From NCBI GenBank assembly GCA_963707215.1, contig CAVPPB010000002.1, positions 256,001 to 320,000 on the forward strand: a DNA stretch of 64,000 nucleotides. Reading direction: 5' to 3'. A model generated the notes under the pieces. The model was not told the DNA's origin. It did no database searches and saw only the letters and a program-made list of their open reading frames with translations. The number at the start of each line of letters is the position of its first letter. Position 1 is the first letter of the stretch. The stretch is from an uncultured Chloroflexia bacterium (GTDB lineage Bacteria > Chloroflexota > Limnocylindria > Limnocylindrales > CSP1-4). The position numbers were made by a program, and so were the translations under genes. Of the stretch, positions 3,100 to 48,911 are shown one piece after another.

Positions 3100-5798
<2,699 letters not shown>

Positions 5799-5802
<4 letters not shown>

Positions 5803-31663: not shown

Positions 31664-32464
31664 GTGGGTGAGCTCGGGTCTCAAGTCGACCACCGGGACC
31701 ATGCCTGGCGGCCGGAGCGCTTCATGGTCGTCGCGGCGCATCCGGACGACGCCGACTTCGGGCCGGCGGCCACGGCCGCTCGCTGGATCGATGCGGGCTC
31801 GGTGGGACGGCTCGTCTGCTGCACGAGCGGCGACGCCGGCGGCACCGACCCCGACCAGGATCCCCTCGAGCTCGCCGCCCTCCGGGAGTCGGAGCAGGCG
31901 GCGGCCGCCGCGATCATCGGCTACGAGGGCGTCGCGTTCCTCCACCAGCCTGACGGCGCCCTTGCCAACGACCTCGCCCTGCGCGAACAGCTGGTCCGCG
32001 AGATCCGGACCTTCAGGCCGGATGCGGTCCTCTGCACCGATCCCGAAGTCATCTTCTACCGCGGCGGTGGGGTCAACCACGCCGATCATCGCGCCGCCGG
32101 GATGGCCGCGGTCGATGCCGTGTACCCGGCCGCCCGCAACCCGATGGCCTTTCCTGCCCTCGCCCGCGCCGGGCTCGAGGCCCACATCGTGCGTCGGCTC
32201 TACCTGTTCTGGTCGGAGCACCCCACCGCCTGGGTCGACGTGACGGCCACGATGGATCGGAAGCTCGACGCGCTCAGGGCCCACGCCAGCCAGATCCGCG
32301 ACCCTGAGCGCCTGATCAGCTGGATCGGCGAGTGGGCCCACGAGGAGGGGGAGGCGATCGGCGTGGCTGCCGGCGAGGCCTTCCGGGTCATCGTCATCGA
32401 GGATGACGATGACGAGGGCCCGACCGGCCAGGCGGCGACCGAGCACGACGACGCGGCCGACTGA
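31664..32464 (+). CDS. PIG-L/LmbE family deacetylase
   Basis: AHPDD, TSGDAG, NHADHR, ALRAHASQ. Confidence 0.88.
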   Translation: MGELGSQVDHRDHAWRPERFMVVAAHPDDADFGPAATAARWIDAGSVGRLVCCTSGDAGGTDPDQDPLELAALRESEQAAAAAIIGYEGVAFLHQPDGALANDLALREQLVREIRTFRPDAVLCTDPEVIFYRGGGVNHADHRAAGMAAVDAVYPAARNPMAFPALARAGLEAHIVRRLYLFWSEHPTAWVDVTATMDRKLDALRAHASQIRDPERLISWIGEWAHEEGEAIGVAAGEAFRVIVIEDDDDEGPTGQAATEHDDAAD

Positions 32465-32516
32465 AGGCGGGACCATAGGAGAGCGGTGCCCGCCGAGGGG
32501 GCGGTCGCCTGCCGGC

Positions 32517-34239
32517 TCAGCCGGTCGCCAGGAGCGCCGGACGGACCCGGCCCCAGTCGTTCCAGACCGCGGTCAGACCCTCGGCACGGCGGCCCAGCAG
32601 GTCCACCATCTCGCCGAGCCCAAGGTCGCCAGCGGCCTCGATCAGGTAGTCGTCGGCGGCGACGCGGCAGCCGGCGAACAGGTCCGGCATCTCGCGCCTC
32701 CGTCGGCCAGATCCGGATGCGCATCGGGTCCTGGCCCGCGTAGCCCACCGCGAGCGAGAGGTCGCGCTGGCTGGGCACCCGACCATCCACGAATGCGCCG
32801 AGCCCATCGAAGCGGAAACCGAGGGACGCGAGGGCGGCGGCGATCTCGCGGCGCTCGGCCCCGGTGAACATGCCCCAGAACGGATGATCGTCCGGGAGGT
32901 CGAGCAGCGACGCGTCGATGGCCGAGGCCATGATGGCGTCGACCAGACCCGAAAGCGCCAGCTGCCAATCCCTCCGAGCCTCCTGGTCCTCGCCCGCGAG
33001 CTCGGCCACGAGGTCGCTCATCGCCCGGTCGTCCCCCCGAAGGAGCCGAAGGATGCGCGGCGACCCCGCCCCTGCGATCGTCTGCTCCAGCTCCGGCCGG
33101 TCCTCCGGGTAGTCGCCCAGACGCGGCACCGCGACCGGGACCTCGGCGGCCTGGCGGGCCACGGCTTCCCGGCAATCGGCCACCGCCTGCCGAGCCGTGA
33201 GGCAGGCGTCAGCCGCCGACTCGGCCGCGATCCGGGCCGCGTCCGCCTCGACCGTTCGGCGCTCCAGCGTCCCGGCCAGCTCGGCTGCCAGGCCTCGCTC
33301 GCGCTCGATGTCGACCGCGGCCCGCCGTGCCTCCGCGTTGATCCGGTTCACCTCCTCGAGCCAGCCGGCGGCGGCCGCGTCGAGCTCGTCCCGATCAGTC
33401 GCGCCGTCGCGAGCGGCTCGGAAGCGGACGTGGGCCTCTTCCTTGGCCGCCCGGATGAGCCGCGGGTCGGTCCGTCGCTCGGCTTCCTCGGCCCGGACGA
33501 GGTGCTCGTCGTAGGCGCGCCGCGTTTCGCCGAGCGTGGCCGCGGCAGCCTCCGCCGTAGCGCGTGCCCGCTCGGCGACCGAGCAGCGATCCTCGGCGAC
33601 CGCGATCAGCGTGCCACAGGGGTCATCTGACGAGGTCACGTCCTGTCCCTGGGCCGTCGAGGCGTCCCCGGTCGGTACGGGCCAGGCGGAGGCGGCGACC
33701 GGGTCAGCCGCGGCGAGCGCCGTCGCGGCCCCGCCCTGCTCCGTCGCGCTCGCGATCGCCGCACCGGTGCCAGTGAGTGAGGGATCCTCGCTCCACGATG
33801 GCCCGGCCATCGGGACGGGCGACTCGCCCAGCGCGGCTGCGGCCGATCGGGCACCGACGGGATCGGCCACGACGGGAACCGCGACCCATGGGCGACCCTC
33901 CAGCAACGGAACGGGTGTTCGAGACCGCGCGCCCCCGGACGTCGTCGCGACGGCTCCAGCCACGGCGAGCGGCAGGCCCAGCGGCGCACGGGGCGGTGGC
34001 ATCGAGCGGTCCAGCTCGCGTCGATCGGCCGGCCCGCCCCGGGCCGGGCCCTCCACCGCGGCCGCGAAGGGATCGTTGGCGAGCGTGACCCCGCGCCGGG
34101 GCACGCTGTCGGGGGCGACGGTCACCCGCACCTCGCGGGGCGGCAGCGGCCGCGTCCGGTAGACGGCGACGAAGGCCGCGCCGGATGCCACGCCGAGGAC
34201 CAGGCCCAGCGCCAGGAAGGCGAACTCGCCCGCGGTCAC
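32517..34239 (-). CDS. Hypothetical membrane-anchored coiled-coil protein; apparent +1 frameshift near 32697
   Basis: GGAGG RBS, N-terminal TM, Ala/Glu/Arg coiled-coil region; the C-terminus (EMPDLF..PALLATG*) is in a shifted frame. Confidence 0.65.
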
Positions 34240-34511
34240 CGCCGTCGTCCTCCTCTCGCGCCCGGCGACGGGCACCGACCCATCTCCGGACGACCACGAC
34301 CTGCGGCGGAGCGTAGCTGCGCCCGGCGGGGGGGTCAACCCGGACGACGGTCACCAGCTTGGGCCCGATGGTCGGAGGTGCGAACGCGCACCGCCGCGCT
34401 GCGCTTTTGCGCCACGCCTGAGCCGGGTGGTAGATTCGGCCCCGCGTCCCGCCGTCCCTTCCTGCCCCGAGCCTGTCCACTCACGAGCCTCGACGAGGAA
34501 AGGCACGCCTG

Positions 34512-36347
34512 TTGGCCATCGACCCGAACCAGGAGTTCCTCGTCCAGCCGGTCGACGCCTCCTGGCTCCAGTGCAACATCGAGTGCCAGGAAGCCTGCCC
34601 GGTGGGGACGAACTGCCGCGGCTACCTCAACCTGGCCGCCGAGGGGCGCTTCGAGGAGGGCTACATCCTCTCCCGGGAGCCGAACCCGGTCGCGGCGATG
34701 TGCTCGTACGTCTGCTCTGCCCCCTGCGAGCGAGCCTGCCGCCGCGGCGACATCGATCGGCCGCTGGCGATCCGGGCGATGAAGCGCTTCCTGGTCGAAT
34801 GGCACGAGGCGTCCGGCATCCCCGACGTCATGCCGGAGATCACGCCCCGCGACGAGCGGGTCGCCGTCATCGGCGCTGGGCCGGCTGGGCTGGCCGTCGC
34901 CCGGGAGCTCGGCGTCAAGGGCTACCAGGTCACGGTCTTCGACTCCCTCCCGTTCGGCGGCGGGACGATGCTCATCGGCGTCCCGGCGTTCCGGCTGCCG
35001 CGCGAGGCGATCGAGATGGACGTCCGCCTCGTCGAGCGGCTTGGGGTGACCTTCCGCTACAACACGACGATCGGTGCGGACGTCCCGTTCGAGGACCTCC
35101 AGCGCGATTTCGACGCCATCGCCATCACCGCCGGCGCCATGAACGCGGTCGTCCTCGACCTGCCCGGGGCCGAGCTCGAGGGCGTCCAGTACGGCGTCGA
35201 CTTCATGAAGAAGGCCAACCTGGGACAGGAGCTGACGGTCGGCAAGGACGTCGTCGTCATCGGCGGCGGCTACACCGCGATGGACTGCTCGCGGACGAGC
35301 CTCCGTCACGGTGCCGAGCGGGTGACGATCGCCTACCGGCGGACCCGGTCGGAGCTGGTGGTCGACGAGGAGGAGCTCGGCGAGACCGAGCGTGAGGGCG
35401 TCCGGATGGAGTTCCTCGCCAGCCCGGTCGAGATCCTCGGCGAGGACGGCCGGGTCACGGGTGTGAAGTTCGTCCGCAACCGGCTCGGCGAGCCGGATGC
35501 CTCGGGGCGGCGCTCGCCGGTCCCCATCGAGGGCTCCGAGTTCATCGTCCCGGCCGACACGGTCATCCCGGCCGTCTCCCAGGCGGCCGACCTGACCTTC
35601 CTGCCGGTCGAGTCGGACTTCGAGGTCGGTCGTGGCCGGGTCAAGGTCGATCCGGCGACCTACGCGACGAACGTCCGCGGCGTCTTCGCCTGTGGCGACT
35701 TCGTGACCGGCCCGACGACGCTCATCGAGGCGGCCGGGCACGGCAAGAAATGCGCCTACGCGATCGACCGTTACCTGGGCGCCCAGGCGGAGGTCGCCGT
35801 GGCCGCCAACGTCCGCATCACCAGCTCGTGGCGCCACGACATGCCCGAGTTCTACGACGTGCTGCCGCGACAGCACATCCCCATGGTCCCGCTCCAGGCT
35901 CGGATGCCCTCGACCGACCCGGAGGTCAACTTCACGACCCCGGTCGAGCTGGGCTACACGGCGACCCAGGCCGTCGCCGAGTCGACCCGCTGCCTGATGT
36001 GCAACTACAACATCTGGTTCGACCCCTTCCGCTGCGTCCTCTGCGGCGCCTGCGCGGACGTCTGCCCGGAGGGGGTCATCCACATGGTCGACATCAACCA
36101 GCTCAAGACCGAGGGCCTGCTGCCGGAGGTCGAGGAGGCCTACGGCTGGGAGAACGGCGCGGCGATGATCCTCGACGAGGAGCGCTGCATCCGCTGCGCA
36201 CTCTGCGTCAAGCGGTGCCCGTTCGACGCCATTACGATGGAGCGGTTCGAGCTGCAGGAAGTCTCGGACGACGGCCGGCTCTACAAGGAGTCGTACCGTG
36301 ACGCCCAGCTGGCCGGCTGGGCAGGCATCGCAGGAGGGGCCAGGTGA
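34512..36347 (+). CDS. NAD(P)H-dependent Fe-S flavoprotein (GltD/NfnB/DsrL-like) with C-terminal 2x[4Fe-4S] ferredoxin domain
   Basis: CQEACP and CSYVC..PCERACRR N-terminal clusters; GAGPAG (FAD); GGGYTAMD and YRR (NADP-type); RCLMC; CVLCGACADVCP; CIRCALCVKRCP. TTG start after GAGGAAAGG. Confidence 0.9.
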   Translation: MAIDPNQEFLVQPVDASWLQCNIECQEACPVGTNCRGYLNLAAEGRFEEGYILSREPNPVAAMCSYVCSAPCERACRRGDIDRPLAIRAMKRFLVEWHEASGIPDVMPEITPRDERVAVIGAGPAGLAVARELGVKGYQVTVFDSLPFGGGTMLIGVPAFRLPREAIEMDVRLVERLGVTFRYNTTIGADVPFEDLQRDFDAIAITAGAMNAVVLDLPGAELEGVQYGVDFMKKANLGQELTVGKDVVVIGGGYTAMDCSRTSLRHGAERVTIAYRRTRSELVVDEEELGETEREGVRMEFLASPVEILGEDGRVTGVKFVRNRLGEPDASGRRSPVPIEGSEFIVPADTVIPAVSQAADLTFLPVESDFEVGRGRVKVDPATYATNVRGVFACGDFVTGPTTLIEAAGHGKKCAYAIDRYLGAQAEVAVAANVRITSSWRHDMPEFYDVLPRQHIPMVPLQARMPSTDPEVNFTTPVELGYTATQAVAESTRCLMCNYNIWFDPFRCVLCGACADVCPEGVIHMVDINQLKTEGLLPEVEEAYGWENGAAMILDEERCIRCALCVKRCPFDAITMERFELQEVSDDGRLYKESYRDAQLAGWAGIAGGAR

Positions 36348-37072
36348 GTTTCCTCGAGCGGGTGGACCAGGGCATCCGCCGGAGCGCCGTGTGGCGCTCG
36401 TTGTTCCGCCAGCCGTACCCCAACGACGAGCGGTCGCGGGCGTACGCGGTCATGAACAACGTCTTCCTGCACATCCACCCGGTCCGGGTACGCCAGCACG
36501 CGGTGAAGTTCGCCTACACCTTCTGCCTGGGCGGGTTGTCGTTCTTCCTGTTCCTGGTCCTGACGGTGACCGGCGTCTACCTGATGTTCTACTACGTGCC
36601 GTCGGCGTCCCAGGCCTACGCGAACATCCTGGAGATCCAGAGCGAGGTGACCTTCGGGCTGCTGACCCGGAACATCCACCGCTGGGCCGCCCACCTGATG
36701 GTCTTCTTCGTCTTCCTGCACATGATGCGGGTCTTCTACCACGGGGCCTACAAGCCGCCCCGCGAGTTCAACTGGGTCGTCGGCGTCGTCCTGCTGTTCC
36801 TGACGATCATGCTGAGCTTCACCGGCTATCTCCTGCCGTGGGACCAGATCGCCTACTGGGCCATCACCATCGGCGGCAACATGGCCGGCTACGCCCCGCT
36901 CTTCAACACGCCCTCCAAGCTGCTCCTGCTGGGCAGCCTGGAGGTCAGCCAGAACACCCTGCTCCGCTTCTACGTGCTCCACATCATGGTCTTCCCGCTC
37001 GTCGCAGCCGTCTTCCTCGCGGTCCACTTCTGGCGGATCCGCAAGGACGGCGGGATCAGCGGCCCGCTGTGA
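36344..37072 (+). CDS. petB: Cytochrome b6-type subunit of Rieske/cyt b complex
   Basis: TFCLGG (heme ci Cys), IHRW..LHMMR, TGYLLPWDQ, LH-x14-H in helix D, C-terminal GISGPL. Confidence 0.92.
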   Translation: MSFLERVDQGIRRSAVWRSLFRQPYPNDERSRAYAVMNNVFLHIHPVRVRQHAVKFAYTFCLGGLSFFLFLVLTVTGVYLMFYYVPSASQAYANILEIQSEVTFGLLTRNIHRWAAHLMVFFVFLHMMRVFYHGAYKPPREFNWVVGVVLLFLTIMLSFTGYLLPWDQIAYWAITIGGNMAGYAPLFNTPSKLLLLGSLEVSQNTLLRFYVLHIMVFPLVAAVFLAVHFWRIRKDGGISGPL

Positions 37073-37098
37073 TCGTCGCCAGGTAGCGGACGGATCCG

Positions 37099-37701
37099 AT
37101 GACCGACACCAAGTCCCCGCCCGAGCGCCGCGTCGTCCTCCCGGTCGATCCGACCAGGCGGACGGAGATCGACAAGCAGCGCGTGCCGATGGCGGCCCGC
37201 CCGTACCGGCTGCTCGCGCTCGTCAAGCAGGACGCCGTCGTCCGGGTCCAGAAGGAGCCCGACGACACGGTCATGACCTGGCCGCACCTGCTGACGATCG
37301 AGTTCCTGGCGGCGGCCATGATCAGCATCTTCCTGCTTCTCATGGGCCTCTTCATGAACGCCCCGCTCGAAGAGCTGGCGAACCCGAACGTGACGCCGGC
37401 GGTGGCCAAGGCCCCCTGGTACTTCCTGGGCCTCCAGGAGCTCCTGGCTTACTTCCACCCGACCGTCTCGGGCGTCCTGGCGCCGACGTTCGTGCTCGTG
37501 GGTGCCGCCCTGCTGCCGTACGTGGATCGGGGCAACGTGCTGGCCAACCGGCCGTCCGACCGCAAGACGGCGGTCGTGCTGTTCACCCTGCTCTGCATCC
37601 TTGGCCTGACGCTGACCTTCATCGGCGTCTTCTTCCGCGGCCCCGGCTACGCGTTCGCGATCCCATACGTGACCACGGCCGGCTTCCACTTCGCGCTGTG
37701 A
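37099..37701 (+). CDS. petD: Rieske/cyt b complex subunit IV (PetD/QcrC-like)
   Basis: TWPHLL, ANPNVTP..KAPWYF (PEWY position), LLPYVDR, 3 TM. Confidence 0.85.
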   Translation: MTDTKSPPERRVVLPVDPTRRTEIDKQRVPMAARPYRLLALVKQDAVVRVQKEPDDTVMTWPHLLTIEFLAAAMISIFLLLMGLFMNAPLEELANPNVTPAVAKAPWYFLGLQELLAYFHPTVSGVLAPTFVLVGAALLPYVDRGNVLANRPSDRKTAVVLFTLLCILGLTLTFIGVFFRGPGYAFAIPYVTTAGFHFAL

Positions 37702-37717
37702 GCCAACGAGACGTCCC

Positions 37718-38392
37718 ATGAGCAACTACCAGGTCGAACCAGCCAGCAAGCCCCAGGCCATCTCGAAGGAGGCCATCAAGGCGCTGCGCCAGGAGCAGGT
37801 CCAGGGCCTCTCGCGGCGCCAGATCCTGCGCGGCTCGATCGCCGGCGCGATGCTCCTCTGGATCGCCGAGGTGTCGGCCGGCTCGATCGGCTTCCTCTGG
37901 CCGAACCTGGCCGGCGGCTTCGGGGGGCGGGTCCGCATCGGTACCATCGACGACGTCAAGCTGGCCAACTCCGAGGTCCCGATCGAGGAGGGCTTCCCCG
38001 GCTACTACCCGGACGCCCGCGCCTACGTCGTCCTGGTCGACCCCGCCGTCCAGCAGTTCCTGCCCGGGACCAGCGAGGACGGCGACGGGACGGCGCTCAA
38101 CGTCCGGGGCCTCTACCAGCGCTGCCCGCATCTCGGCTGCCGGCCGAACCCGTGCGAGCGGAACTTCTGGATGGAGTGCCCCTGCCACGGCTCGCGTTTC
38201 GACCGCCTGGGCATCAAGGTCGCCGGCGAGCAGTACGGCCCGGCGCCGCGGAGCATGGACCGCTTCGCGAGCGAGGTCGACGGTGAGGGGGTCCTGACCC
38301 TCGACACCGGCCGGATCACCCTGGGGCCGCTGCCGATCGCTCTCGGCCAGCCCGGCGTCATCCCACCGAAGGCACCGACCGGATGCATCTGA
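37718..38392 (+). CDS. petC: Rieske [2Fe-2S] protein, Tat-exported
   Basis: SRRQILR Tat motif + TM, CPHLGC, CPCHGSRF, GPAPRSMD. Confidence 0.92.
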   Translation: MSNYQVEPASKPQAISKEAIKALRQEQVQGLSRRQILRGSIAGAMLLWIAEVSAGSIGFLWPNLAGGFGGRVRIGTIDDVKLANSEVPIEEGFPGYYPDARAYVVLVDPAVQQFLPGTSEDGDGTALNVRGLYQRCPHLGCRPNPCERNFWMECPCHGSRFDRLGIKVAGEQYGPAPRSMDRFASEVDGEGVLTLDTGRITLGPLPIALGQPGVIPPKAPTGCI

Positions 38393-38432
38393 CCGCCCGC
38401 CCGCCATCGACCGCCGACCTGCGAGGAGATCG

Positions 38433-39509
38433 ATGACCGATCAGCCCGGCCGCGAGCCGGAGCAGCGCCTGCCCGAGCGCCGACCGGAGGCCGAGCCGCC
38501 GAGCGCCGACCGGTTCACCGCGCCGCCTCAGGCGCACAGCTTCGAGCTGACGCCGGAGCGAGCGTCGCGCATCGTCCGGGCCTCCGGTGACTCCCGGCTC
38601 ATCGGCTTCCTCGCCGTCCTCGTCGTCGGGCTCTTCGTGATCGGCTACTACTTCTACGAGCTGGCGCCCTTCGGCCTGACCGAGAGCCGTCTGGACAGCG
38701 AGGCGGCGGCCCAGCAGGTCACCGCGGTCGAGCGGGGCTACAACATCTACCAGGCCAACTGCGCCCGCTGTCACGGCGTGGACGGCGAGGGCGGCATCGG
38801 CCCGGTCCTCAACCGCCAGGACAAGCTGTTCCAGCACCTCGACGAGGCGTACCTGCACACGATCCTGCTCGTCGGCGGGCGCTACGCCTGCGGCGACCCG
38901 AACAGCCTCATGCCCCTCTGGTCGAACGAGGGATCGCCGCCGGGACCGCTCAACTACGAGCAGATCAATGAGCTGATCGAGTTCATCCGGGCGTCCAAGG
39001 ACGAGACCTTCATCGTCCGGGATCCCGAGCTCTTCGAGCCGCTCATCGACCCCGCCACCGGCGAGCCCCGGACCTTCACCGGCTGGGTCGATCCGAACTA
39101 CACGCCGGAGCCGGGCGCGACCCCGTATCCGGATTGCTGGCAGGACGAGTTCGCGGCGCCGCCGCCCGCATCCCCGGGGGCCAGTCCCGAGCCGGGAGCG
39201 TCGGCGGCGCCATCGGAGGCGCCGGGTGACGGTGCCGTCCTCGACATCAGCGCCCAGAACATCGCCTTCGACACCGACACGCTGGAGGCTCCGGCTGACA
39301 CGGCCTTCCAGATCCGCTTCGCCAACAACGACGCCGGCATCCCCCACAACGTGGAGATCCTTGACGAGGCCCGGACGTCGATCTGGAAGGGCGACATCTT
39401 CAATGGCGTCGAGACCCGGGTCTACGACGTGCCGGCCCTGCCGGCGGGCACCTACACGTTCATCTGCACGGTGCATCCGAACATGGTGGGGACCCTCACG
39501 GTCAAGTAG
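38433..39509 (+). CDS. Membrane-anchored cytochrome c fused to a C-terminal cupredoxin (type 1 Cu) domain
   Basis: TM helix, CARCH, distal Met in SLMP, then PHNV...YTFICTVHPNMVG. Confidence 0.88.
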   Translation: MTDQPGREPEQRLPERRPEAEPPSADRFTAPPQAHSFELTPERASRIVRASGDSRLIGFLAVLVVGLFVIGYYFYELAPFGLTESRLDSEAAAQQVTAVERGYNIYQANCARCHGVDGEGGIGPVLNRQDKLFQHLDEAYLHTILLVGGRYACGDPNSLMPLWSNEGSPPGPLNYEQINELIEFIRASKDETFIVRDPELFEPLIDPATGEPRTFTGWVDPNYTPEPGATPYPDCWQDEFAAPPPASPGASPEPGASAAPSEAPGDGAVLDISAQNIAFDTDTLEAPADTAFQIRFANNDAGIPHNVEILDEARTSIWKGDIFNGVETRVYDVPALPAGTYTFICTVHPNMVGTLTVK

Positions 39510-39548
39510 CTCCGGGCCGCCTGGCGGCTCCGGTCGGGATGGAGGACG

Positions 39549-41021
39549 ATGGCCCAGCAGGCACTCGAGAGCGGGGCGACGCGGAAGCGGGTCTTCTTCG
39601 GCCTGCTCGACGCGGACAGCTGGTCATGGGCGGCGGTCAAGGCCGTCTTCTGGCTCATCGTCCTGATCATGATGCTCGGCTACATCCCCGACCGCGCCTA
39701 CTATTTCACGGTATTCAGCACGATCAGCATCGGGCTCGACCCGGCCCAGCCGCCGGCCAGCGCCGTCACGCCGGTCAACCTCTGCCCGGCCGAGAACGGC
39801 GACCTGCCCTGCCCCGTGCCGACCGGCGCGATGCTCCCGTGGGAGCCGTCGCCTGCCGAGGTCGCCCTGCCGGCCGGGCGGACCGACGGCGGGGTCGTCC
39901 AGCTGGGTAGCAAGCTCGTCTACGTCGGTGGGACCGACGGGGCTGGTCCCGTCGCCGACACCTACGTCGCCCGACTCGTCGACGGCAGCACCTTCGACGC
40001 CTGGGAGCCCGGGCCGGCGCTCCCGGAGCCCCGGGCCGGCGCGGCGGTCGTCGCCTTCGGCGGCTCGGCCTACGTCATCGGCGGCTCGGACGCCGGCGGC
40101 GAGCCGACGACGACGGTCTATCGGATGACGGTCGACCTCAACACGGGCGAACTCGGCGAGTGGACCCCCGTCGAGGAGCTCGCGCTGCCCGAGGCCCGGG
40201 CTCGAGCGGCCGTCGCGGTGGCCCCCGACGGCCTGATCCTCGTCGGCGGACAGACGGGCTCAGGCTCCGTGACGTCGGTCTGGAAGAGTGACCTCGATGG
40301 CGACGAGCTGGCTGCCTGGGCGCCGAACGCGGAGATGCCGGAGGCGCGCTACGACCACGGTGCGATCGTCATCGGCGACTACCTCTGGGTCTTCGGCGGC
40401 TCGGGAGCCGACGAGGCGCCGACGGCGACCGTCCTGCGCGGGACCGTGACCGTCCCCGAGGTTCCCGAGGGCTCGCCGCCCGGCGCGACCGCCGACCCGT
40501 CCTTCGTGAGCGACTGGGCGACGAACGCCGATGCGAACCTGCCGGTGGCGCGCACCAACGCGGCGACCTTCACGGCCAACGGGATCGTCTACCTGGTCGG
40601 CGGCAGCGACGGATCGGCCCCGAAGGGCGAGGTCTACTGGGGCGTGCCCGACGGCGACGGCGACATCGACTGGACGACGCTGACGGCGTCCGATCTCCCC
40701 GACCAGGGGCTGGTCGGGGCGGCCGGTGCGGTCTCGGGCTCGACGGCGTTCGTGATCGGGGGCGAGACCCAGGGCGGTGTGCTCGCGTCCTCGGCGCGGG
40801 CCAGCCTGGCGCCCGGCAACCCGTACCTCCAGGTCGGCCTCCTGGGGATCACGATCCCGGCCCTCGGGATCCAGGGCGAGATCGGCCAGCAGATCGGCTA
40901 CCTGAACGCGGCCGGGGTCGGCACGGTCAACTTCATCATCCTGCTCCTGATCGGCGTGGCCTTCGCCCATCCCGAGCGGACGAAGGGCCTGGCCCGGCGG
41001 GTCATCGGGGTCTTCCGCTAG
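39549..41021 (+). CDS. Kelch-repeat beta-propeller membrane protein
   Basis: Repeated YV.GG...W...LP..R motifs (about 6); N- and C-terminal TM helices. Confidence 0.8.
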   Translation: MAQQALESGATRKRVFFGLLDADSWSWAAVKAVFWLIVLIMMLGYIPDRAYYFTVFSTISIGLDPAQPPASAVTPVNLCPAENGDLPCPVPTGAMLPWEPSPAEVALPAGRTDGGVVQLGSKLVYVGGTDGAGPVADTYVARLVDGSTFDAWEPGPALPEPRAGAAVVAFGGSAYVIGGSDAGGEPTTTVYRMTVDLNTGELGEWTPVEELALPEARARAAVAVAPDGLILVGGQTGSGSVTSVWKSDLDGDELAAWAPNAEMPEARYDHGAIVIGDYLWVFGGSGADEAPTATVLRGTVTVPEVPEGSPPGATADPSFVSDWATNADANLPVARTNAATFTANGIVYLVGGSDGSAPKGEVYWGVPDGDGDIDWTTLTASDLPDQGLVGAAGAVSGSTAFVIGGETQGGVLASSARASLAPGNPYLQVGLLGITIPALGIQGEIGQQIGYLNAAGVGTVNFIILLLIGVAFAHPERTKGLARRVIGVFR

Positions 41022-41069: not shown

Positions 41070-41426
41070 TCAGGCCGGCAGGTCCCCCTCGCCCGGCCCC
41101 GGGATCCCGGTCGACACCGGCAGCCCGGCCTGGTACCAGGCCACGATGCCCCCGCTGACGTTGGCCACGCGGGGGTAGCCCTGGCGGAGCAGGTACTCGG
41201 TGGCCGAGGCGGACCGCGCACCACTCTTGCAGAGCATCAGCAGTGGCCGGTCGGCCGGCAGCTCGTTGCAGCGGGCGACGAACTCCGAGAGGGGCAGCAG
41301 GACCGACCCGGCGACACGGACCTGGGCGAACTCGTCGGGTTCCCGGACGTCCACGATCAGGGCGCCGCCATCCGCGTGCGTGCTGGCGTCCTGGACGGTG
41401 ACGAAGGGCAGCGACGTCGGATCCAT
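41070..41426 (-). CDS. Rhodanese-like domain protein
   Basis: IVDVREPDEF, CKSGARS, NVSGGIVAW. Confidence 0.88.
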   Translation of the reverse strand: MDPTSLPFVTVQDASTHADGGALIVDVREPDEFAQVRVAGSVLLPLSEFVARCNELPADRPLLMLCKSGARSASATEYLLRQGYPRVANVSGGIVAWYQAGLPVSTGIPGPGEGDLPA

Positions 41427-41457
41427 CGATCGGGCTCCTGCGGGTCGCTGGCCGTGG

Positions 41458-41910
41458 TCAGCCGAGCTCGGCAAGGGGGCGACGGCCGTCGTAGCCGTCG
41501 TCGTGATCGTGCCACCAGGCGATGTCGCCCTCCCCGAGTCGCCAGCAGAGCCAGACGGGGCGACCGGCGACGAGCGCCGGCAGGTCGACCAGGCCCGTGG
41601 GGATGTCCCGCAGGACGACCTCGACCTCGTCCAGGCGGGTGACGTCGGCCTGCATCTGGTCGATGAGCCCCTGCATCCGCAGGCGGATCCGACGGAGCTC
41701 GGGGTCCCTGGCGGCGAGGTCGGCGAGCGTCTCGTCGTCCAGCGCGCGGCCGGCCGGCGGCCCCGCGGCGGATTGGACCCCGGCGAGACGCTCGACGGCG
41801 AGATCGCGCAGCGCGACGAGCGCCTCGCGCTGGTCGCGCAGGCGCTCCAGGACCTCGCGAAGCTCGGCGATGCGGGCGTTGGCGTCGTCGATGGTGTAGT
41901 AGCGTGTCAC
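41458..41910 (-). CDS. DUF2203 family protein
   Basis: YTIDDANA, LRD..GLVDLP, WLCWRLGE..WWH..G..GRRPL; TACAAT 7 nt before GTG. Confidence 0.85.
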   Translation of the reverse strand: MTRYYTIDDANARIAELREVLERLRDQREALVALRDLAVERLAGVQSAAGPPAGRALDDETLADLAARDPELRRIRLRMQGLIDQMQADVTRLDEVEVVLRDIPTGLVDLPALVAGRPVWLCWRLGEGDIAWWHDHDDGYDGRRPLAELG

Positions 41911-42050
41911 GAGCAGGATTGTAGAGCCTCGATCCGGATGGTCCGTCGGGCAGGTCCTTCGGCGGCCACTGCTCGGACCCGGCCAGCCGTCACGGGCACC
42001 ACACAGCCCGGCCCGCTGGGGGCCCGGTCGGGTAGAGTCGCCACGGCGAC

Positions 42051-42125
42051 GGGCCCGTAGCTCAGGGGCAGAGCAGGGGACTTTTAATCCTCGTGTCGTG
42101 GGTTCGAATCCCACCGGGCCCTCCA
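42051..42125 (+). tRNA. tRNA-Lys(UUU)
   Basis: GGGCCCG/CGGGCCC acceptor stem, anticodon loop CT-TTT-AA, GGTTCGAATCC T-arm, encoded CCA. Confidence 0.95.
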
Positions 42126-42401
42126 TGCCCCAGGCCGACGACCACGTCCAGGCGGAGTCAGGAGGACCGACCGCACAGCGCGACGGAGGCTCGCAGCCCA
42201 TCGGACCCTTGGCGATGATGGCCGTACGAACCACGCTGTCCCACGCTGCGCCTCGGCGCGGATCGGACCGGACCGCATCCTGTTCATCCCCCGGATACGC
42301 CATGCTCACGGCGACGGAGCAGGGTCCGGCGCCTGGCGCCGGTCCGTCCGTCGACGGTCCTCCGTCGGAGCATCGCCATCGCCCTTCATGGAGGTCCTCA
42401 G

Positions 42402-43403
42402 ATGGGCTTCGATCTCAGGGACCGCAGCTTCGTCAAGCTGCTTGACTACTCTCCGAAGGAGATCCGCTTCCTGCTTGACCTGGCCGCCGACCTGAAGGCC
42501 GCCAAGTACGCCGGCACCGAGCAGCGGCGGCTGCGGGGCAAGAACATCGCCCTCATCTTCGAGAAGACCTCCACTCGGACCCGGGTGGCCTTCGAGGTGG
42601 CCGCCTACGACCAGGGCGCCCACGTCACCTACCTCGGCCCGAGCGGGACCCAGATCGGCCACAAGGAGTCGATGAAGGACACTGCCCGGGTCCTCGGCCG
42701 CATCTTCGACGGCATCGAGTACCGGGGCTTCGGGCAGGGGATCGTGGAGGAGCTCGCGGCCTACGCCGGCGTCCCGGTCTGGAACGGGCTGACCGACGAA
42801 TTCCACCCGACCCAGATCCTGGCCGACGTGCTGACGATGACCGAGCACAGCGACAAGCCGCTGACGCGCATCTCGTACTGCTACCTGGGCGACGCCCGCA
42901 ACAACATGGGCAACTCGCTGCTGGTCGGCGGGGCGAAGCTGGGGATGGACGTCCGGCTCTGCGCTCCACGGGCGCTCTGGCCCCACGAGGACCTCGTCGA
43001 GACCTGTCGGGGCATCGCCGCCGAGACCGGCGCCCGGATCACCCTGACCGAGGATCCGGCCGAGGGCGTCAAGGACGTCGATTTTCTCTACACGGACGTC
43101 TGGGTCTCCATGGGCGAGGATCCGTCGGTCTGGGAGGAGCGGGTCAGGCTCCTCAAGCCGTACCAGGTCAACGCGGACCTGGTCGCCCTGTCCGGCAACC
43201 CCGGCGTCAAGTTCCTGCACTGCCTGCCGGCCTTCCACGACCGCGAGACGAAGGTCGGCGAGGAGATGTACGAGCGCTTCGGGCTCGACGGCATGGAGGT
43301 CACCAACGACGTGTTCGAGTCAGAGCGCTCGATCGTCTGGGACCAGGCCGAGAACCGGATGCACACGATCAAGGCGGTCATGGTCGCGACGCTCGGCGAC
43401 TGA
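42402..43403 (+). CDS. argF: Ornithine carbamoyltransferase (probably catabolic, next to ADI)
   Basis: [34 protein letters not shown]. Confidence 0.95.
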
Positions 43404-43540
43404 GCCGATCGGCTCGCTCGACGACCGGGCCTCGTCGACGGCACGGACGGCACGACCACCGTCCCCGCCAGTGGGGCCATGGCAGGATCGGAAACGGGTC
43501 GGCTCGCTGGCCGCCCGGGCCGTTGAAGGAGCGACGTGTC

Positions 43541-44800
43541 ATGACAGGGTTCGGGGTCCACTCCGAGGTCGGCAAGCTGCGCAAGGTCATCGTCCATCGG
43601 CCGGACCTCAGCCTGAGGCGGCTCACGCCCGGCAACCACGACGACCTGCTCTTCGACGACGTCCTGTGGGTCGAGCGGGCCAAGTGGGAGCACGACCAGT
43701 TCGTCGCCCGGATGCGCGAGCGCGGTGTCGAGGTCTTCTACGTCGAGGACCTCCTGACGGAGGCGCTGGCCGAGGACGAGGTCCGGCTCCGCCTGATCGA
43801 GGTCGTGACCCGCGAGCACGTCGTGGGCCCGACCCTCGTGGAGGAGGTCGCTGCGTGTCTGGCCGGATTCCCGCCGGACGTCCTGGCCGCTCACCTCATC
43901 GGGGGCCTGACCGTCGGCGAATCGGGGCTCGACCTGGGCCGCCTTGCCGGCGGCTCACTGATCGCGGCGGCGATCGAAGACGACACGACGTTCATCCTGC
44001 CGCCCCTCCCGAACACGCTCTTCACGCGCGACTCGTCGTGCTGGATCTACGGCGGCGTCTCAGTCAACCCGATGTTCTGGCCGGCTCGTCGTCGCGAGGC
44101 GTTCAACATGGCCGCCATCTACCGCGGCCACCCGATGTTCCGCGAGGCCGACTTCGAGTTCTGGTACCCGACGATGGGGGAGGACGAGCGGGTCCGGGCC
44201 GAGGACTTCGGCATGGCCTCATTGGAGGGCGGCGACGTCGAGGTCCTGGGACGTGGCACGGTGCTCATCGGCCTCTCCGAGCGGACCACCGGTCGGATGA
44301 TCGAGGAGATCGCACTGGCCCTCTTCGCCAGGGAGGCGGCCCAGCGCGTCATCGCCTGTGTGATGACCAGGGACCGGGCCCACATGCATCTCGACACCGT
44401 GTTCACCCTCCTTGACCTGGACAAGGCGACGGCCTATCCCAAGGTCGTCGAGGGGATCCGGGCGATCAGTCTTCGGCCGGGCGAGCGGCCCGGTACCCTC
44501 GACGTCCGGCCCGAGAGGGACCTCCTATCGGCGGTCACGGATGCCCTCGGCGTGCCGAAGCTGCACGTGGTCGAGACCGGCGGTGACGCCTACCAGCAGG
44601 CCCGTGAGCAATGGGACGACGGCAACAACGTCGTCGCCCTCGAGCCTGGCGTCGTCGTCGCTTACGAGCGGAACACGTTCACCATCTCGAAGATGCGCGA
44701 TGCCGGGGTCGAGGTCATCCCGATCGAGGGCTTCGAGCTGGGCAAGGGCCGCGGCGGTGGGCACTGCATGACCTGCCCGATCAGCCGCGACGCTGTCTGA
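43541..44800 (+). CDS. arcA: Arginine deiminase
   Basis: GVHSEVGKL, LLFDD, PNTLFTRD, EGGD, MHLDTV, GRGGGHCMTCP. Confidence 0.95.
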   Translation: MTGFGVHSEVGKLRKVIVHRPDLSLRRLTPGNHDDLLFDDVLWVERAKWEHDQFVARMRERGVEVFYVEDLLTEALAEDEVRLRLIEVVTREHVVGPTLVEEVAACLAGFPPDVLAAHLIGGLTVGESGLDLGRLAGGSLIAAAIEDDTTFILPPLPNTLFTRDSSCWIYGGVSVNPMFWPARRREAFNMAAIYRGHPMFREADFEFWYPTMGEDERVRAEDFGMASLEGGDVEVLGRGTVLIGLSERTTGRMIEEIALALFAREAAQRVIACVMTRDRAHMHLDTVFTLLDLDKATAYPKVVEGIRAISLRPGERPGTLDVRPERDLLSAVTDALGVPKLHVVETGGDAYQQAREQWDDGNNVVALEPGVVVAYERNTFTISKMRDAGVEVIPIEGFELGKGRGGGHCMTCPISRDAV

Positions 44801-44872
44801 GGGAGGGGCGGGTCCCGCACCTCGATCGGGCCGGCTCGTGAGCTGCCGCGTGCCCCTGCGCGGGACGATCGA

Positions 44873-45748
44873 TCAGAACGGCGTCGGGATGTACTTGAGC
44901 GGCAGGTCGGGCGAGGTGTGGCCAGCGCTCACCCTGCGCTTTGGCAGCTCCACCTCGCGAGGCTCGAGCGGCTCGTAGGGGACCTGGCTCAGCAGGTGGC
45001 TGATGATGTTGAGCCGCCCCCGCTTCTTGTCGTCGGTGCGGGCGATCCACCAGGGCGCCCACGGTGTGTCGGTCGCCGCCAGCATGGCGTCCCGGGCCCG
45101 CGAGTAGTCGTCCCAGCGGCCGTACGACTTGAGGTCCATGTCGGTCAACTTCCAGACCTTGCGGGGGTCGTTGATGCGGCCCTCGAGGCGGCGGGTCTGC
45201 TCCTCGGGGCTGACCTCCAGCCAGTACTTGAGGAGGATGATCCCGGACTCGACCATCGCCCTCTCGACGGCCGGTGCCTGCTCGAGGAACTTCTCGGTCT
45301 CCTCGGGAGTGCAGAAGCCCATGACCCGCTCGACCCCGGCCCGGTTGTACCAGCTGCGGTCGAAGATCACGACCTCGCCGCCCGCTGGGAAGTGCGGCAG
45401 GTAGCGCTGGACGTACATCTGGGACTTCTCGCGCTCGGTCGGGGCGGACAGGGCGACGACCTTGAAGACCCGCGGGCTGACCCGCTCGGTGATCCGCTTG
45501 ATGGTGCCGCCCTTGCCGGCGGTGTCCCGGCCCTCGAAGACGATGCAGACCTTGGCCCCGGTCGCCTTGACCCACTCCTGCATCGCCACGAGCTCGCCGT
45601 GGAGGCGGGTCATCTCCCGCTCGTAGTCCTTGGTCTTCATCTTCGGCGGGGGCCCGCCCGGGGACGGCTCGGATTCGCCGCCCGGGACGTCGCGGGGCGC
45701 CTGGTCCTCATGCGGCTTCCGACCCTTCTTGTCCCTCTTCTTGGTCAC
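44873..45748 (-). CDS. ppk2: Polyphosphate kinase 2
   Basis: FEGRDTAGKGG, FDRSWYNRAGVERVMG, KYWL; GGAGG RBS before GTG. Confidence 0.93.
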   Translation of the reverse strand: MTKKRDKKGRKPHEDQAPRDVPGGESEPSPGGPPPKMKTKDYEREMTRLHGELVAMQEWVKATGAKVCIVFEGRDTAGKGGTIKRITERVSPRVFKVVALSAPTEREKSQMYVQRYLPHFPAGGEVVIFDRSWYNRAGVERVMGFCTPEETEKFLEQAPAVERAMVESGIILLKYWLEVSPEEQTRRLEGRINDPRKVWKLTDMDLKSYGRWDDYSRARDAMLAATDTPWAPWWIARTDDKKRGRLNIISHLLSQVPYEPLEPREVELPKRRVSAGHTSPDLPLKYIPTPF

Positions 45749-45889
45749 GTTCTCGTCCTCCACTCGGCTCGTCGATATCGGATCCGGCTGCGGCACAGCC
45801 AGACACCTGGACGTCCGGGAGCTGGCTCGGCGGCGCCGGCTATGCCGGTCCGCCGCCGCTGCGCGGCTCCGGGACTTCGGTCCGTAGCA

Positions 45890-48652
45890 CTACGCAGTGA
45901 CGGCCACCGCCTCCGGCTCGGCCGCGACCGTCTTCTCCACCGGTTCGACCTGCCAGACGAGCTTGCGGATCTCGGAGACCACGATCACCAGCAGGCCGAC
46001 GACGATGCAGACAGCCCACTGCTCGATGGTCAGGCTGGTCGTGCTCAGCAACCGAGTGAGGACGCCCAGCTCGGTCATCAGCAGGATCGTCGCCATCGAG
46101 GCCAGGCTGGCGAGGATGAACGGGCGGTCCGCCAGGACGCCGAGGCTGAAGGCCGAGTTGCGCTCGTCCTTGGTCGCCAGCGAGAAGGCCAGGTTGCCGA
46201 TCGAGAAGGTGACCATGCCCATGGTCCGGGCGATCGTGTCGTCGTAGGTCTGGCTCGCCCAGTAGATGACGGCCAGCGAGCCCCCGCCCATGACCAGCCC
46301 CATGATGGCGAGCCAGATGAGCATCGGACGGTCGAGGAGCGCTTCCTTGGAAGGCCTCGGCAGGCGCTCCATCAGCCCTGTGGCCGGTTTGCCGAAGCCG
46401 AGGGCGATGGCCTGGAAGACCTGGATGGTGAAGTTCATGAACAGGGTCTGGGCCGGGTAGAACGGGACGCCGCCCAGGACGTTCAGGAGGCTGGAGCCCA
46501 GGAACGTCGCGATGTAGCCGATCAGGACGGCGACCTGGAACCGGATGTACTTCTTGAGGTTGTCGTAGAGGCCGCGCCCCAGCTCGACCGCCTTCACGAT
46601 CGTCGCGAAGTTGTCGTCGGTCAGGATCATGTTGGCGGCTTCCTTGGAGACCTCCGTGCCGGTGATCCCCATGGCCACGCCGATGTCGGCGCGCTTCAGC
46701 GCCGGGGCGTCGTTCACGCCGTCGCCGGTCATGGCCACGATGTGGTCCTTCTTGCGCAGGATGTCGACCAGGTGGACCTTGTCCTCGGGAGCCACCCGGG
46801 CGATGACACCGATGCCGTCGATCTCGCGCATGGCCTCGTCGTCGCTCATCGCCCGGAACTCGGCGCCGGTGATGGCCCGGCCCCGGATGCCGAGCTCGCT
46901 GGCGATCGCCCCCGCCGTCACGGCATGGTCGCCAGTGATCATCCGGACCTGGATGCCGGCGGCGTGGGCCTCCTTGATCGATGCCTTGGCCTCCGTCCGC
47001 GGCGGGTCGACGATGCCGACGAGGGCCAGCAGCGTCATCCCGTCGAGGAGGGGCAGGAGGTCGGCGTCCGGGTCGAAGGTGGACGGGTCGAAGTCCTTGC
47101 GGCCGGTCGCCATCACCCGGAGACCCTTGGCGCCCAGGCGCTCGTTCTCGTCCATGTAGCGCTGGCGGAGGTCGTCGTCCACTAGCCGGGTGCCGGACAG
47201 GTCGGGGGTGACTACCTCCGTGCCACGGGCCAGGAGCTGGTCGGGTGCGCCCTTCACGAAGCAGCGGACGACCTCGTTGCCGGACTCGTCCGTCATCCGG
47301 TGGAAGGTGGCCATCATCTTGTACTCGGCGTCGAACGGCAGCGTCGCGACCCGCGGGTAGGTCTCCCGGGTGGCGACGGTGCTGACCCCGCCCTTCTCGG
47401 CGAGGACCACCAGCGCTCCCTCCGTCGGGTCGCCGATCAGCTCGCCGTCCTTGACGACGGCGTCCGAGGCCAGGACGCAGGGCAGGAGGAACGGGTCGAG
47501 CGGGACGTCGACATCGCCGCCGACCCTGCTGATGGTGCCCTCGAACCCATAGCCCGTGCCCGAGACCGTGTGGCGCCGACCGGGGATCGTCAGCTCGGTG
47601 GCGGTCATCTGGTTGAGGGTCAGGGTGCCGGTCTTGTCCGAGTTGATGGCCGACGTCGACCCGAGGGTCTCGACGGAGCGCAGCTGCTTGACGATGGCGT
47701 GGGCCTTGGCGAGGGTCTGCGTGCCGTACGAGAGGATCGTGGTGATGACGGCCGGCAGGCCCGTCGGGATGGCCGAGACGGCGAAGGCGATGGCGGTGAC
47801 GAACAGGACGTCGAACGGCTGGTCGTACCGGAAGTAGCCGATCGCGATGGAGGCGATGAGGGCGACACCGGCGATGATCAGCAGCTGCTGGGTCAGGACG
47901 TTGATCTGGCGGGTGAGCGGGGTCTCCTCCTCGGGGGCCTCCTGGAGCATCCCGGAGATGTGGCCGACCTCGGTGCTCATGCCCGTCGCGGTGACCAGCA
48001 TCTCCCCGGAGCCGCGGGTGACGTTCGTGTTCATGAAGGCCATGTCGACGCGGTCGCCCAGCGCGGCATCGGCGGCGACCGGAGCGACCTGCTTCGATGC
48101 CGGCAGGCTCTCGCCGGTCAGGGCGGCCTCCTCGAGCTCGACGGTCGCGGCCTTGATGAGCCTTCCGTCAGCGGTGATGACGTCCCCGGCCTCGAAGGCG
48201 ACGATGTCGCCGGGGACCAGCTCCTCGGCCGGGATCTCCACCAACTCGCCGTCGCGACGGACCCGCGCCTTGACGATCATCATCTGCTGGAGGGCGGCCA
48301 CGGCGGCCGCGGCCTTGCCCTCCTGGCTAAGGCCGAGGTAGGCGTTGAAGACCGTCAGCACGATGAGCATCACGCCGGTCGAGACCTGGCCGACCGGCCA
48401 GATGCTGGCGATGCCGGCGACCAGCAGGACGATCTGCATCAGGTCCGCGTACTGGCGCAGGAAGGCCCGCCAGCGCGGCTCGGTCTCCTGCTCGGCGAAC
48501 TTGTTGGGTCCATAGGTCGAGCGTCGCGACGTGACCTCGACGGCGCTCAGGCCCCGCGCAGGATCGACACCCTGCGCTGCGAGCGCCTCCTCCACGGACA
48601 GGGCATGCCAGGCGGTCGTGGGCGCCGCAGGGGCCCCCGGTTGCTCGCTCAT
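45890..48652 (-). CDS. P-type ATPase, P2A-like scaffold with atypical membrane ion-binding site
   Basis: TGES, DKTGT, KGAP, DPPR, MITGD, GDGVNDAPALK; M4 is IPTGLP. Confidence 0.92.
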   Translation of the reverse strand: MSEQPGAPAAPTTAWHALSVEEALAAQGVDPARGLSAVEVTSRRSTYGPNKFAEQETEPRWRAFLRQYADLMQIVLLVAGIASIWPVGQVSTGVMLIVLTVFNAYLGLSQEGKAAAAVAALQQMMIVKARVRRDGELVEIPAEELVPGDIVAFEAGDVITADGRLIKAATVELEEAALTGESLPASKQVAPVAADAALGDRVDMAFMNTNVTRGSGEMLVTATGMSTEVGHISGMLQEAPEEETPLTRQINVLTQQLLIIAGVALIASIAIGYFRYDQPFDVLFVTAIAFAVSAIPTGLPAVITTILSYGTQTLAKAHAIVKQLRSVETLGSTSAINSDKTGTLTLNQMTATELTIPGRRHTVSGTGYGFEGTISRVGGDVDVPLDPFLLPCVLASDAVVKDGELIGDPTEGALVVLAEKGGVSTVATRETYPRVATLPFDAEYKMMATFHRMTDESGNEVVRCFVKGAPDQLLARGTEVVTPDLSGTRLVDDDLRQRYMDENERLGAKGLRVMATGRKDFDPSTFDPDADLLPLLDGMTLLALVGIVDPPRTEAKASIKEAHAAGIQVRMITGDHAVTAGAIASELGIRGRAITGAEFRAMSDDEAMREIDGIGVIARVAPEDKVHLVDILRKKDHIVAMTGDGVNDAPALKRADIGVAMGITGTEVSKEAANMILTDDNFATIVKAVELGRGLYDNLKKYIRFQVAVLIGYIATFLGSSLLNVLGGVPFYPAQTLFMNFTIQVFQAIALGFGKPATGLMERLPRPSKEALLDRPMLIWLAIMGLVMGGGSLAVIYWASQTYDDTIARTMGMVTFSIGNLAFSLATKDERNSAFSLGVLADRPFILASLASMATILLMTELGVLTRLLSTTSLTIEQWAVCIVVGLLVIVVSEIRKLVWQVEPVEKTVAAEPEAVAVTA

Positions 48653-48911
48653 CGTCTCCCTCGCTTCATGCGCACCGGCCCCGGCCCCGGGATCGGTCTC
48701 GAGCCAGTGTCCGAAGATGCTACCCCACGGGTCCGGGCCGACTCCGGGCCATGAGGCCCGGACGCCTGTCGCCACTAGACCCGATGGCGCGACGACGCGC
48801 ATCCTCCCTTTGGGGGGGGTATGGGACCGGCCCTGGACGCCGCGTGCGCTCGGGCGGGGCGCGACGCATCCGTCGGTGGGTCGGTCGGCGACCGAACCCG
48901 CCGATCCCCGC

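Follow-up and report, generated by a model that had tools for sequence, protein, structure and literature searches.

The stretch of DNA analyzed here (the window; 64,000 nt, 73% G+C) corresponds to C2:256001-320000 of the source genome G000 (3.26 Mb, five contigs, 73% GC), which belongs to the class Limnocylindria of the phylum Chloroflexota. Six open reading frames (ORFs), all on the + strand and together spanning positions 34512-41021 of the window, encode an iron-sulfur (Fe-S) flavoprotein, cytochrome b6, subunit IV (SUIV), a Rieske protein, a cytochrome c-cupredoxin fusion, and a Kelch protein (Table 1), and domains were assigned through Pfam and NCBIfam profile searches of the window proteins. 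The six ORFs have a G+C content at third codon positions (GC3) of 0.93-0.98, the usual range for real genes in a 73% GC genome. The six co-oriented genes had been described at these coordinates in a first-pass annotation of the window, and all six ORFs are indeed present on the + strand; the motifs listed therein, including the YRR motif, the glycine motifs for flavin adenine dinucleotide (FAD) and NADPH, the Rieske boxes, CARCH, and the copper ligands, are likewise present in the translations. The GTGA overlap between the flavoprotein and b6 genes, also reported in that annotation, can be read directly at 36344-36347, where the flavoprotein stop codon TGA overlaps the b6 start codon GTG. GGAGGGG lies at 36333-36339, just upstream of this start codon, and the sequence indicates that the flavoprotein and cytochrome b6 are translationally coupled. 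A scan revealed no promoter-like site, and two terminator-like matches inside the b6 gene did not exceed those of shuffled sequences. The six genes would constitute one operon for a menaquinol:cytochrome c/blue-copper oxidoreductase, i.e., a complex III of the b6 type with haem cn.

Table 1. Genes of the cluster, with positions in the window.
Gene product	Position	Strand	Domain evidence
Fe-S flavoprotein, NfnB/GltD family, 611 aa, predicted cytoplasmic	34512-36347	+	Pfam Fer4_20, Pyr_redox_2, two C-terminal Fer4
Cytochrome b6, 242 aa, four-helix, CxGG Cys for haem cn	36344-37072	+	Pfam Cytochrome_B 1.6e-45
SUIV, 200 aa, three membrane helices by PetD alignment	37099-37701	+	Pfam Cytochrom_B_C
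Rieske [2Fe-2S] protein, 224 aa	37718-38392	+	Pfam Rieske; boxes CPHLGC, CPCHGS
Membrane-anchored monohaem cytochrome c + type-1 copper (cupredoxin) fusion, 358 aa	38433-39509	+	Pfam Cytochrom_C, Cupredoxin_1, Copper-bind
Kelch beta-propeller protein, 490 aa, membrane-anchored	39549-41021	+	Pfam Kelch families

The adjacency of the flavoprotein and b6 genes is conserved throughout the class, as judged by hand from match coordinates. The closest public loci comprise 562 confirmed relatives, of which the best 80 display 87-96% identity. In a sample of the order consisting of the source genome and 40 relatives (n = 41), a flavoprotein ortholog is present in 37 genomes (82-96% identity) and the same 37 contain b6 (83-97%). 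In all 37, the two genes are arranged head to tail on one strand and either overlap or lie at most 48 nt apart; in three cases the pair is interrupted by a contig end or a frame break. Where b6 is missing (G004, G005, G009, and G015), the ortholog is missing as well, and these four genomes contain only paralogs of approximately 40% identity. The flavoprotein is as conserved as b6, also in genomes of 1.0-1.4 Mb, which is the size range of a sister family in the same order. Furthermore, a class-level sample of 60 genomes and the source genome (n = 61) covers five families, and here the flavoprotein was probed by its C-terminal part. Cytochrome b6 and SUIV were found in 55 of the 61 genomes and the C-terminal part of the flavoprotein in 54, distributed over family f1 (11/17 and the source genome), f2 (3/3), f3 (20/20), f69 (18/19), and f70 (1/1). 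The flavoprotein gene is directly upstream of b6 in 54 of these 54 genomes, with gaps of less than approximately 210 nt, and the 4-nt overlap of the window recurs at locus L097 of family f3. Contig breaks run through b6 in G340 and G348, and b6 starts 484 nt from a contig end in G354, where the upstream gene is out of view. The remaining six genomes (five of genus g9 and one of g15) lack b6, SUIV, and the flavoprotein C-terminus together. The arrangement is far beyond chance, and the synteny check suggested with the first-pass annotation thus finds the adjacency kept at both levels (37/37 and 54/54).

Outside the class, the two genes occur separately. The phylum-level sample comprises 301 genomes, including four unpublished ones (G078, G209, G262, and G306) that enter these tallies only, and thresholds of E ≤ 1e-60 for b6 and E ≤ 1e-115 for the flavoprotein homolog yielded 115 and 69 genomes, respectively. 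Among the 268 genomes outside the class, b6 is present in 88 (40-67% identity) and a flavoprotein homolog in 42 (42-48%); 38 genomes contain both, never adjoining. The two are located on one contig in four genomes (G201, G150, G175, and G307), at distances of 146 kb to 3.1 Mb, and on different contigs in the other 34. Locus L095 of G201, a member of another class, displays the order b6-SUIV-Rieske-cytochrome c-cupredoxin with no flavoprotein upstream, and the stand-alone flavoprotein homologs of G201 and G150 have unrelated neighbours. L095 and the unlinked clusters indicate that the four-gene core and its order are widespread in Chloroflexota and that the flavoprotein gene joined this core in Limnocylindria. 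The location of the Rieske gene after the cytochrome b gene, pointed out in the first-pass annotation, is a real feature of the order b6-SUIV-Rieske, which recurs at L095.

The flavoprotein consists of an N-terminal Fe-S domain with eight cysteines, an FAD site, an NADP(H)-type YRR site, a C-terminal ferredoxin domain for two [4Fe-4S] clusters, and a 30-aa tail. Its translation contains AYRRTRSE (the YRR motif), GAGPAG, and GGGYTA, and no signal peptide or membrane helix was identified therein. The best solved relatives are 9bov_A/9bp5 (4e-109), 9n5u_A NfnA (1.5e-107), NfnB 4ylf_B (5.5e-85), and GltD 2vdc_G (2e-68). The best NCBIfam model, PRK12771, scores 426.2 bits against a cut-off of 516, and the gltA model TIGR01316 scores 327.8 against 471.75; no NCBIfam cut-off is reached by the flavoprotein, and the GltD, NfnB-like, YgfK, and AegA models score high but under their cut-offs. 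Y275, R276, R277, and ten C-terminal cysteines are invariant in the aligned sequences, and in alignment A6 the residues G121, G123, G126, G251, and G253 are invariant along with Y275-R277. Pfam domains, solved relatives, and invariant residues agree with the initial description of an NfnB-like flavoprotein that carries a YRR site and, C-terminally, a ferredoxin domain for two clusters. The N-terminal domain contains eight cysteines in three flavoproteins linked to b6, in comparison with five common to five unlinked homologs; the extra cysteines of the linked proteins are C21, C35, and C64, none of which occurs in the five unlinked sequences of the alignment. Limnocylindria share a conserved C-terminal tail; since stand-alone homologs have tails of similar length, no specific docking motif can be claimed for it. 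The flavoprotein of family f3 (L097:7118-9073; 651 aa) has an insertion of approximately 45 residues in the FAD/NADPH domain relative to the window protein.

The flavoprotein was also searched against a protein library of 1.84 billion cluster representatives, and the best 150 were inspected. These include one full-length representative at 85% identity, several fragments at 64-92%, and one representative at 50%, and the other full-length matches are at 49% or less, mostly 36-47%; nothing outside Limnocylindria exceeds 44% among these 150. The nearest outside homolog, P0013 of Nitrospinota (40% identity), has no cytochrome b adjoining it at locus L122. Paralogs are also present in the source genome. 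An 807-aa paralog (Fer4_20 and Pyr_redox_2, approximately 38% identity) is encoded at 7884-10307 of the window and adjoins a xanthine-dehydrogenase-type molybdenum enzyme (3100-5802) and an amidohydrolase (5799-6821), a context that differs from the operon and is probably catabolic. Another paralog, of 38% identity, lies at G000:C3:1702601-1708801 in a 913-aa open frame approximately 4 kb from a NuoD match, and similar paralogs of approximately 850-990 aa recur in many relatives.

The membrane subunits are of the b6 type. Spinach b6 (6rqf_I) matches the cytochrome b6 end to end (1.2e-52), and TFCLGG of the latter aligns on YCLGG of 6rqf_I, the site of the haem cn cysteine. C61, G63, and G64 do not vary among the 21 class sequences, and haem cn binding is predicted from the sequence. 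The haem b ligands H112, H126, H213, and H228 are invariant in the same 21 sequences, as are H43, H45, and H52; H43 and H45 are invariant in the three aligned unlinked b6 sequences, too. SUIV aligns over three helices with PetD (1q90_D, 2zt9_B, and 1vf5_B; PetD has 160 aa) and has KAPWY, an APWY variant, at the PEWY position and Glu68 beside the position of PetD Phe40, both invariant in 21/21. In menaquinol-type complexes, a Glu in this region of SUIV is the ligand of haem cn; Glu68 may be a candidate for this role, with the alignment off by one residue. The Rieske protein contains both cluster-binding boxes, in which the Ser is present and Phe takes the place of Tyr. Among solved chains it is closest to 9rk4_A (9.6e-10) and 9rk3_A (2.1e-9), both identified as Rieske proteins of Kuenenia in Hauser et al. 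(2025, PMC12954380).

The cytochrome c-cupredoxin fusion has a single CxxCH, in CARCH, together with the copper ligands H..C..H..M, and is presumed to be the electron exit. The same fusion is found in the small-genome family (L098) and in the other Chloroflexota class (L095); the gene at that position in family f3 (L097) shows a cytochrome c domain only. The Kelch protein has hydrophobic stretches near both ends. In the class sample its gene was found in Limnocylindrales only (10/17 and the source genome in f1 and 3/3 in f2; 0/20 in f3, 0/19 in f69, and 0/1 in f70) and adjoins the cluster wherever found, with an identity of only 45-57%, well below that of the other genes. The ORFs downstream of the cluster at L095 and L097 have no similarity to the Kelch protein, although ORF picks in this high-GC DNA may be wrong.

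The genomic setting is that of an aerobic chain. COX1 is present in three of three carriers tested (G000, G025, and G327) and in none of seven non-carriers (87-95% complete), and the oxidase of the source genome is located at C2:325729-327063, approximately 29 kb downstream of the cluster. Five small genomes (1.0-1.4 Mb, 91-93% complete) contain exactly one Cytochrome_B match each, which is in this cluster, and an alternative complex III of the NrfD type (ACIII-like) gave no match in two of the five. The COX1 link and the sole cytochrome b indicate that the cluster behaves as complex III of an aerobic chain, with the flavoprotein sharing its distribution, and the aerobic-type gene content with COX1 is in line with the earlier description of a non-anammox organism. 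Pairing with a glutamate synthase large subunit, which the first-pass annotation had named as a finding that would speak against its proposal, was not observed: GltB of the source genome is on contig C1 and the cluster on C2, and the best GltB (PF01645) match in G025 (1.2 Mb), which retains the flavoprotein, reaches only 20.5 bits. A second locus of the Rieske/cytochrome b type is located at G000:C1:855371-858907 (L101) and encodes a long cytochrome b of 365 aa, with b and SUIV-like parts fused, and after it a multihaem cytochrome c (490 aa) of the c7/c3 type. The PntB match of the source genome (C2:124625-125995) is split into four pieces in different frames and is in one piece in four relatives, which indicates either a broken gene or indel errors in the assembly.

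Soil RNA libraries (four runs) contain contigs of relatives that match the genes for the flavoprotein, b6, and SUIV at 85-99% likeness; runs X15 and X16 give near-identical figures and may be one data set. Two contigs, record 21 of X17 and record 28 of X19, span the junction between the flavoprotein and b6 genes and extend more than 31 letters to either side of it. These contigs lend weak support to joint expression, because they are derived from relatives, cannot prove a single transcript, and may come from DNA present in the libraries. DNA runs labelled estuary or sediment share 0.22-0.34 of sampled words with the window, and no habitat is drawn from them.

The first gene of the operon would add to this complex III a cytoplasmic subunit of the NfnB/GltD type that binds NADP(H) at the YRR site, and single electrons would be exchanged with the n-side haems of b6 (bn/cn) via FAD and a wire of approximately four Fe-S clusters. 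At the gene level, the evidence for a functional tie between the flavoprotein and the complex is strong. That the flavoprotein is a redox subunit of the complex, working in either direction, is favoured with modest confidence, and the analogy with the Kuenenia complexes suggests that it may dock on the cytoplasmic face of b6/SUIV and exchange electrons with haem cn or bn. This reading draws on the adjacency, the co-loss, the conservation, the role as complex III, the lack of a glutamate synthase partner, and a Rieske protein that is closest to those of Kuenenia among the solved chains. A complex prediction combined a b6 dimer and an SUIV dimer (residues 29-200) with the C-terminal part of the flavoprotein (residues 441-611), using a 21-row alignment for each; its scores of 0.27 and 0.12, against a mark of 0.32, have no bearing on binding either way. 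The wider proposal, namely that the housekeeping aerobic complex III of the whole class is a three-module enzyme in which a flavoprotein wired to the n-side haems couples the Q cycle to NADP(H), is plausible but falls short of being favoured. With such coupling, the enzyme would either work as a fused NAD(P)H:cytochrome c/Cu oxidoreductase or reduce NADP+ by oxygen-driven quinol bifurcation.

Several observations weigh against the flavoprotein being a subunit. Its attachment is argued from gene-level evidence and analogy, and extra b6 copies of 87-88% identity occur in two genomes (G022:C1:3297906-3298631, L100; G360:C3:1388975-1389700) with no adjoining flavoprotein among the matches listed, G022 having 19 further flavoprotein matches beyond these. 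The linker, the ferredoxin domain, and the CLxC motif of the flavoprotein are family-wide and are also found in stand-alone homologs with unrelated neighbours. Likewise, H43/H45 of b6, Glu68 of SUIV, and the N-terminal RxLAxVxQ of SUIV are equally conserved in unlinked Chloroflexota clusters, and the sole difference seen in b6 is a C-terminal extension of 25-30 aa in three unlinked sequences that is missing from three linked ones; the membrane subunits thus appear to have no clear flavoprotein-specific adaptation. NuoD and PntB are present in carriers and non-carriers alike, and no metabolic gap was found for the flavoprotein to fill. Furthermore, SUIV has three helices in Limnocylindria as against five in Kuenenia, and the c subunit is monohaem (c-cupredoxin) here, whereas Kuenenia has hexa- and octahaem cytochromes and an HAO-like protein.

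If the flavoprotein is attached, the direction of electron flow distinguishes two versions. NAD(P)H may feed the Qn side, as an NAD(P)H:menaquinone entry resembling that of b6f with ferredoxin-NADP+ reductase (FNR), so that the enzyme is an NAD(P)H:cytochrome c/Cu oxidoreductase; this version is regarded as possible and is put forward tentatively, with a slight lean towards it because it is downhill, because the organisms are of the aerobic heterotroph type with complex I and PntB, and because the membrane core is as in unlinked relatives. Alternatively, the attached flavoprotein may act as an NADP+ reductase as proposed for anammox bacteria, with menaquinol bifurcated at Qo so that one electron passes to Rieske, c/Cu, and oxygen and the other via bp, bn/cn, the Fe-S wire, and FAD to NADP+. 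The architecture fits the proposal for Kuste4569-4574 and Kustd1480-1485 in the accessible part of PMC12954380; the Rieske protein has the hydrogen-bonding Ser of CPCHGS and Phe at the Tyr position like the 9rk3 chain, which is given there as Kustd1480 with a measured potential of +335 mV, and a high-potential exit is available through blue copper and the haem-copper oxidase encoded in the genome. However, the tested carriers possess NuoD and PntB and look like aerobic heterotrophs, which suggests no obvious need for reverse flow to NADP+, and the membrane core is identical in kind to that of unlinked relatives; this direction is regarded as somewhat less likely.

The flavoprotein might instead be a co-expressed, unattached, soluble NADPH-dependent reductase that serves the complex through its product or partner, for example by providing reductant for the covalent attachment or the upkeep of haem cn at the cytoplasmic side, or as a ferredoxin-type shuttle. 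The haem cn insertion system is unknown outside the cyanobacterial lineage according to the accessible part of Dibrova 2017 (PMC5600118), and 38 of the 42 Chloroflexota genomes with a stand-alone homolog also have a b6 cluster, a hint only, as these genomes are related. Such a helper is nevertheless improbable: G066 has the homolog though its b6 reads GLGG instead of CLGG, families f7, f17, and f26 possess b6 yet yielded no homolog at E ≤ 1e-115, and a 611-aa, four-cluster flavoprotein conserved at 85% and placed first in the operon is heavy for an assembly factor. Less probable still, and disfavoured, is an unrelated enzyme of the GltD, NfnB, DsrL, or dihydropyrimidine dehydrogenase type that merely adjoins a bc operon. 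The high scores of the GltD, NfnB-like, YgfK, and AegA models, though none is over its cut-off, and the paralogs of 37-42% identity with other contexts in the same genome, such as that at 7884-10307, would suit this explanation; the class-wide adjacency, the start/stop overlap, and the co-loss with b6 contradict it, as do the lack of GltB in G025 and of any NfnA-, DsrAB-, or PreA-type gene among the neighbours scanned.

The surroundings of the operon are as follows. Approximately 2 kb on its 5′ side (32465-34511) are without a convincing gene; no ORF there passes the GC3 filter, Pfam matched neither a 712-aa ORF on the minus strand (32200-34338) nor a 248-aa ORF, and a search for Rfam families in this region gave no match. 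On the other side, a minus-strand rhodanese gene (41070-41474) faces the end of the operon in convergent orientation. The 5′ part of a long minus-strand DUF2203 ORF (41458-42309) contains a tRNA gene (42051-42122, +); since the DUF2203 Pfam match covers only residues 136-279, the real start of the DUF2203 gene is probably further downstream. Genes for ornithine carbamoyltransferase, arginine deiminase, PPK2 polyphosphate kinase, and a 1074-aa P-type cation ATPase follow at 42402-49114, and a second tRNA gene is located at 52589-52660. A 964-aa regulator-like protein with a MerR/HTH domain, three GAF domains, and a GGDEF domain is encoded at 24101-26995.

For chloroplast cyclic flow and for the anammox complexes alike, it is still debated whether electrons can enter or leave via haem cn at the cytoplasmic face, and the anammox proposal is based on gene clusters, co-migration, and models. 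The class-wide version in aerobic bacteria provides a much simpler test system, with a monohaem c/blue-copper exit and with the sole cytochrome b complex in small genomes, and shows that anammox chemistry is no precondition for the arrangement. If the flavoprotein is a subunit, a further entry or exit for NAD(P)(H) would have to be built into models of the respiratory chain of Limnocylindria, which are common soil and freshwater bacteria; if the complex III of the class is the proposed three-module enzyme, the design put forward for anammox bacteria would be taken out of its niche.

The cluster may be compared with several known systems. The Ext cytochrome b pair (selenite/tellurite reduction) is matched over the cut-off by one subunit only: b6 scores 295.6 against a cut-off of 290 for Geobacter ExtP (NF040969), whereas SUIV scores 53.7 against 150 for ExtQ (NF040970), and no other Ext-type gene is seen in the cluster. 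The flavoprotein shares its domain order and motifs with NfnB, GltD, and Bfu-type NfnABC (4e-109 to 2e-68 to solved members), but no NfnA-, GltB-, or hydrogenase/formate-dehydrogenase-type partner is encoded among the window neighbours. The likeness to b6f and FNR lies in the pairing of a b6 complex that bears haem cn with an NADP(H) flavoenzyme at the n side, as proposed for the present cluster, FNR being associated with the cyanobacterial and chloroplast complex (Zhang et al., 2001, cited in PMC5600118). By contrast, the Limnocylindria system is non-photosynthetic. FNR itself is a small flavoprotein of unrelated type that lacks Fe-S clusters, and its gene is not known to accompany petB/petD.

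The anammox bacterium Kuenenia stuttgartiensis has Rieske/cytochrome b complexes for which Kartal 2013 and de Almeida 2016 are reportedly the sources. Kuste4569-4574 and Kustd1480-1485 contain NAD(P) oxidoreductase subunits (PMC12954380, PMC5600118), and the accessible text of Hauser et al. (2025, PMC12954380) cites co-migration of the flavoprotein, presents AlphaFold3 models, and proposes that His43 of Kuste4571 binds an extra haem b at the dimer axis. Both systems have a four-helix b6-type cytochrome b with a haem cn motif, a separate SUIV, and a Rieske protein, together with an in-operon gene for a cytoplasmic Fe-S flavoprotein with FAD and approximately four clusters, and the nearest solved structures of the two flavoproteins are the same (9bp5 and 5t5i). 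The order flavoprotein-b6-SUIV-Rieske is unlike that of Kuenenia, as are the aerobic host and the sole cytochrome b of the small genomes. Beyond planctomycetes, large NAD(P)-binding Fe-S oxidoreductases are found together with short cytochromes b “in many other cases” according to Dibrova 2017 (PMC5600118), which also states that such complexes “do exist,” with gene proximity displayed on a tree; the members of its subfamily G, in several phyla, resemble the present cluster in having a short cytochrome b next to or co-occurring with the oxidoreductase and are interpreted there as a membrane-anchored dehydrogenase. The novelty implied by the first-pass annotation is accordingly smaller, since that article already extends the pattern beyond planctomycetes. 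The word Chloroflexi is absent from the main text of that article, in which Ktedonobacteria are listed, and no description of such a cluster in Chloroflexota or Limnocylindria was found in the limited collection of literature searched. The kind of complex is thus already known, and what is new in comparison is the three-helix SUIV, the monohaem c/blue-copper exit, the aerobic host, the class-wide conservation, and the role as the sole cytochrome b of streamlined genomes.

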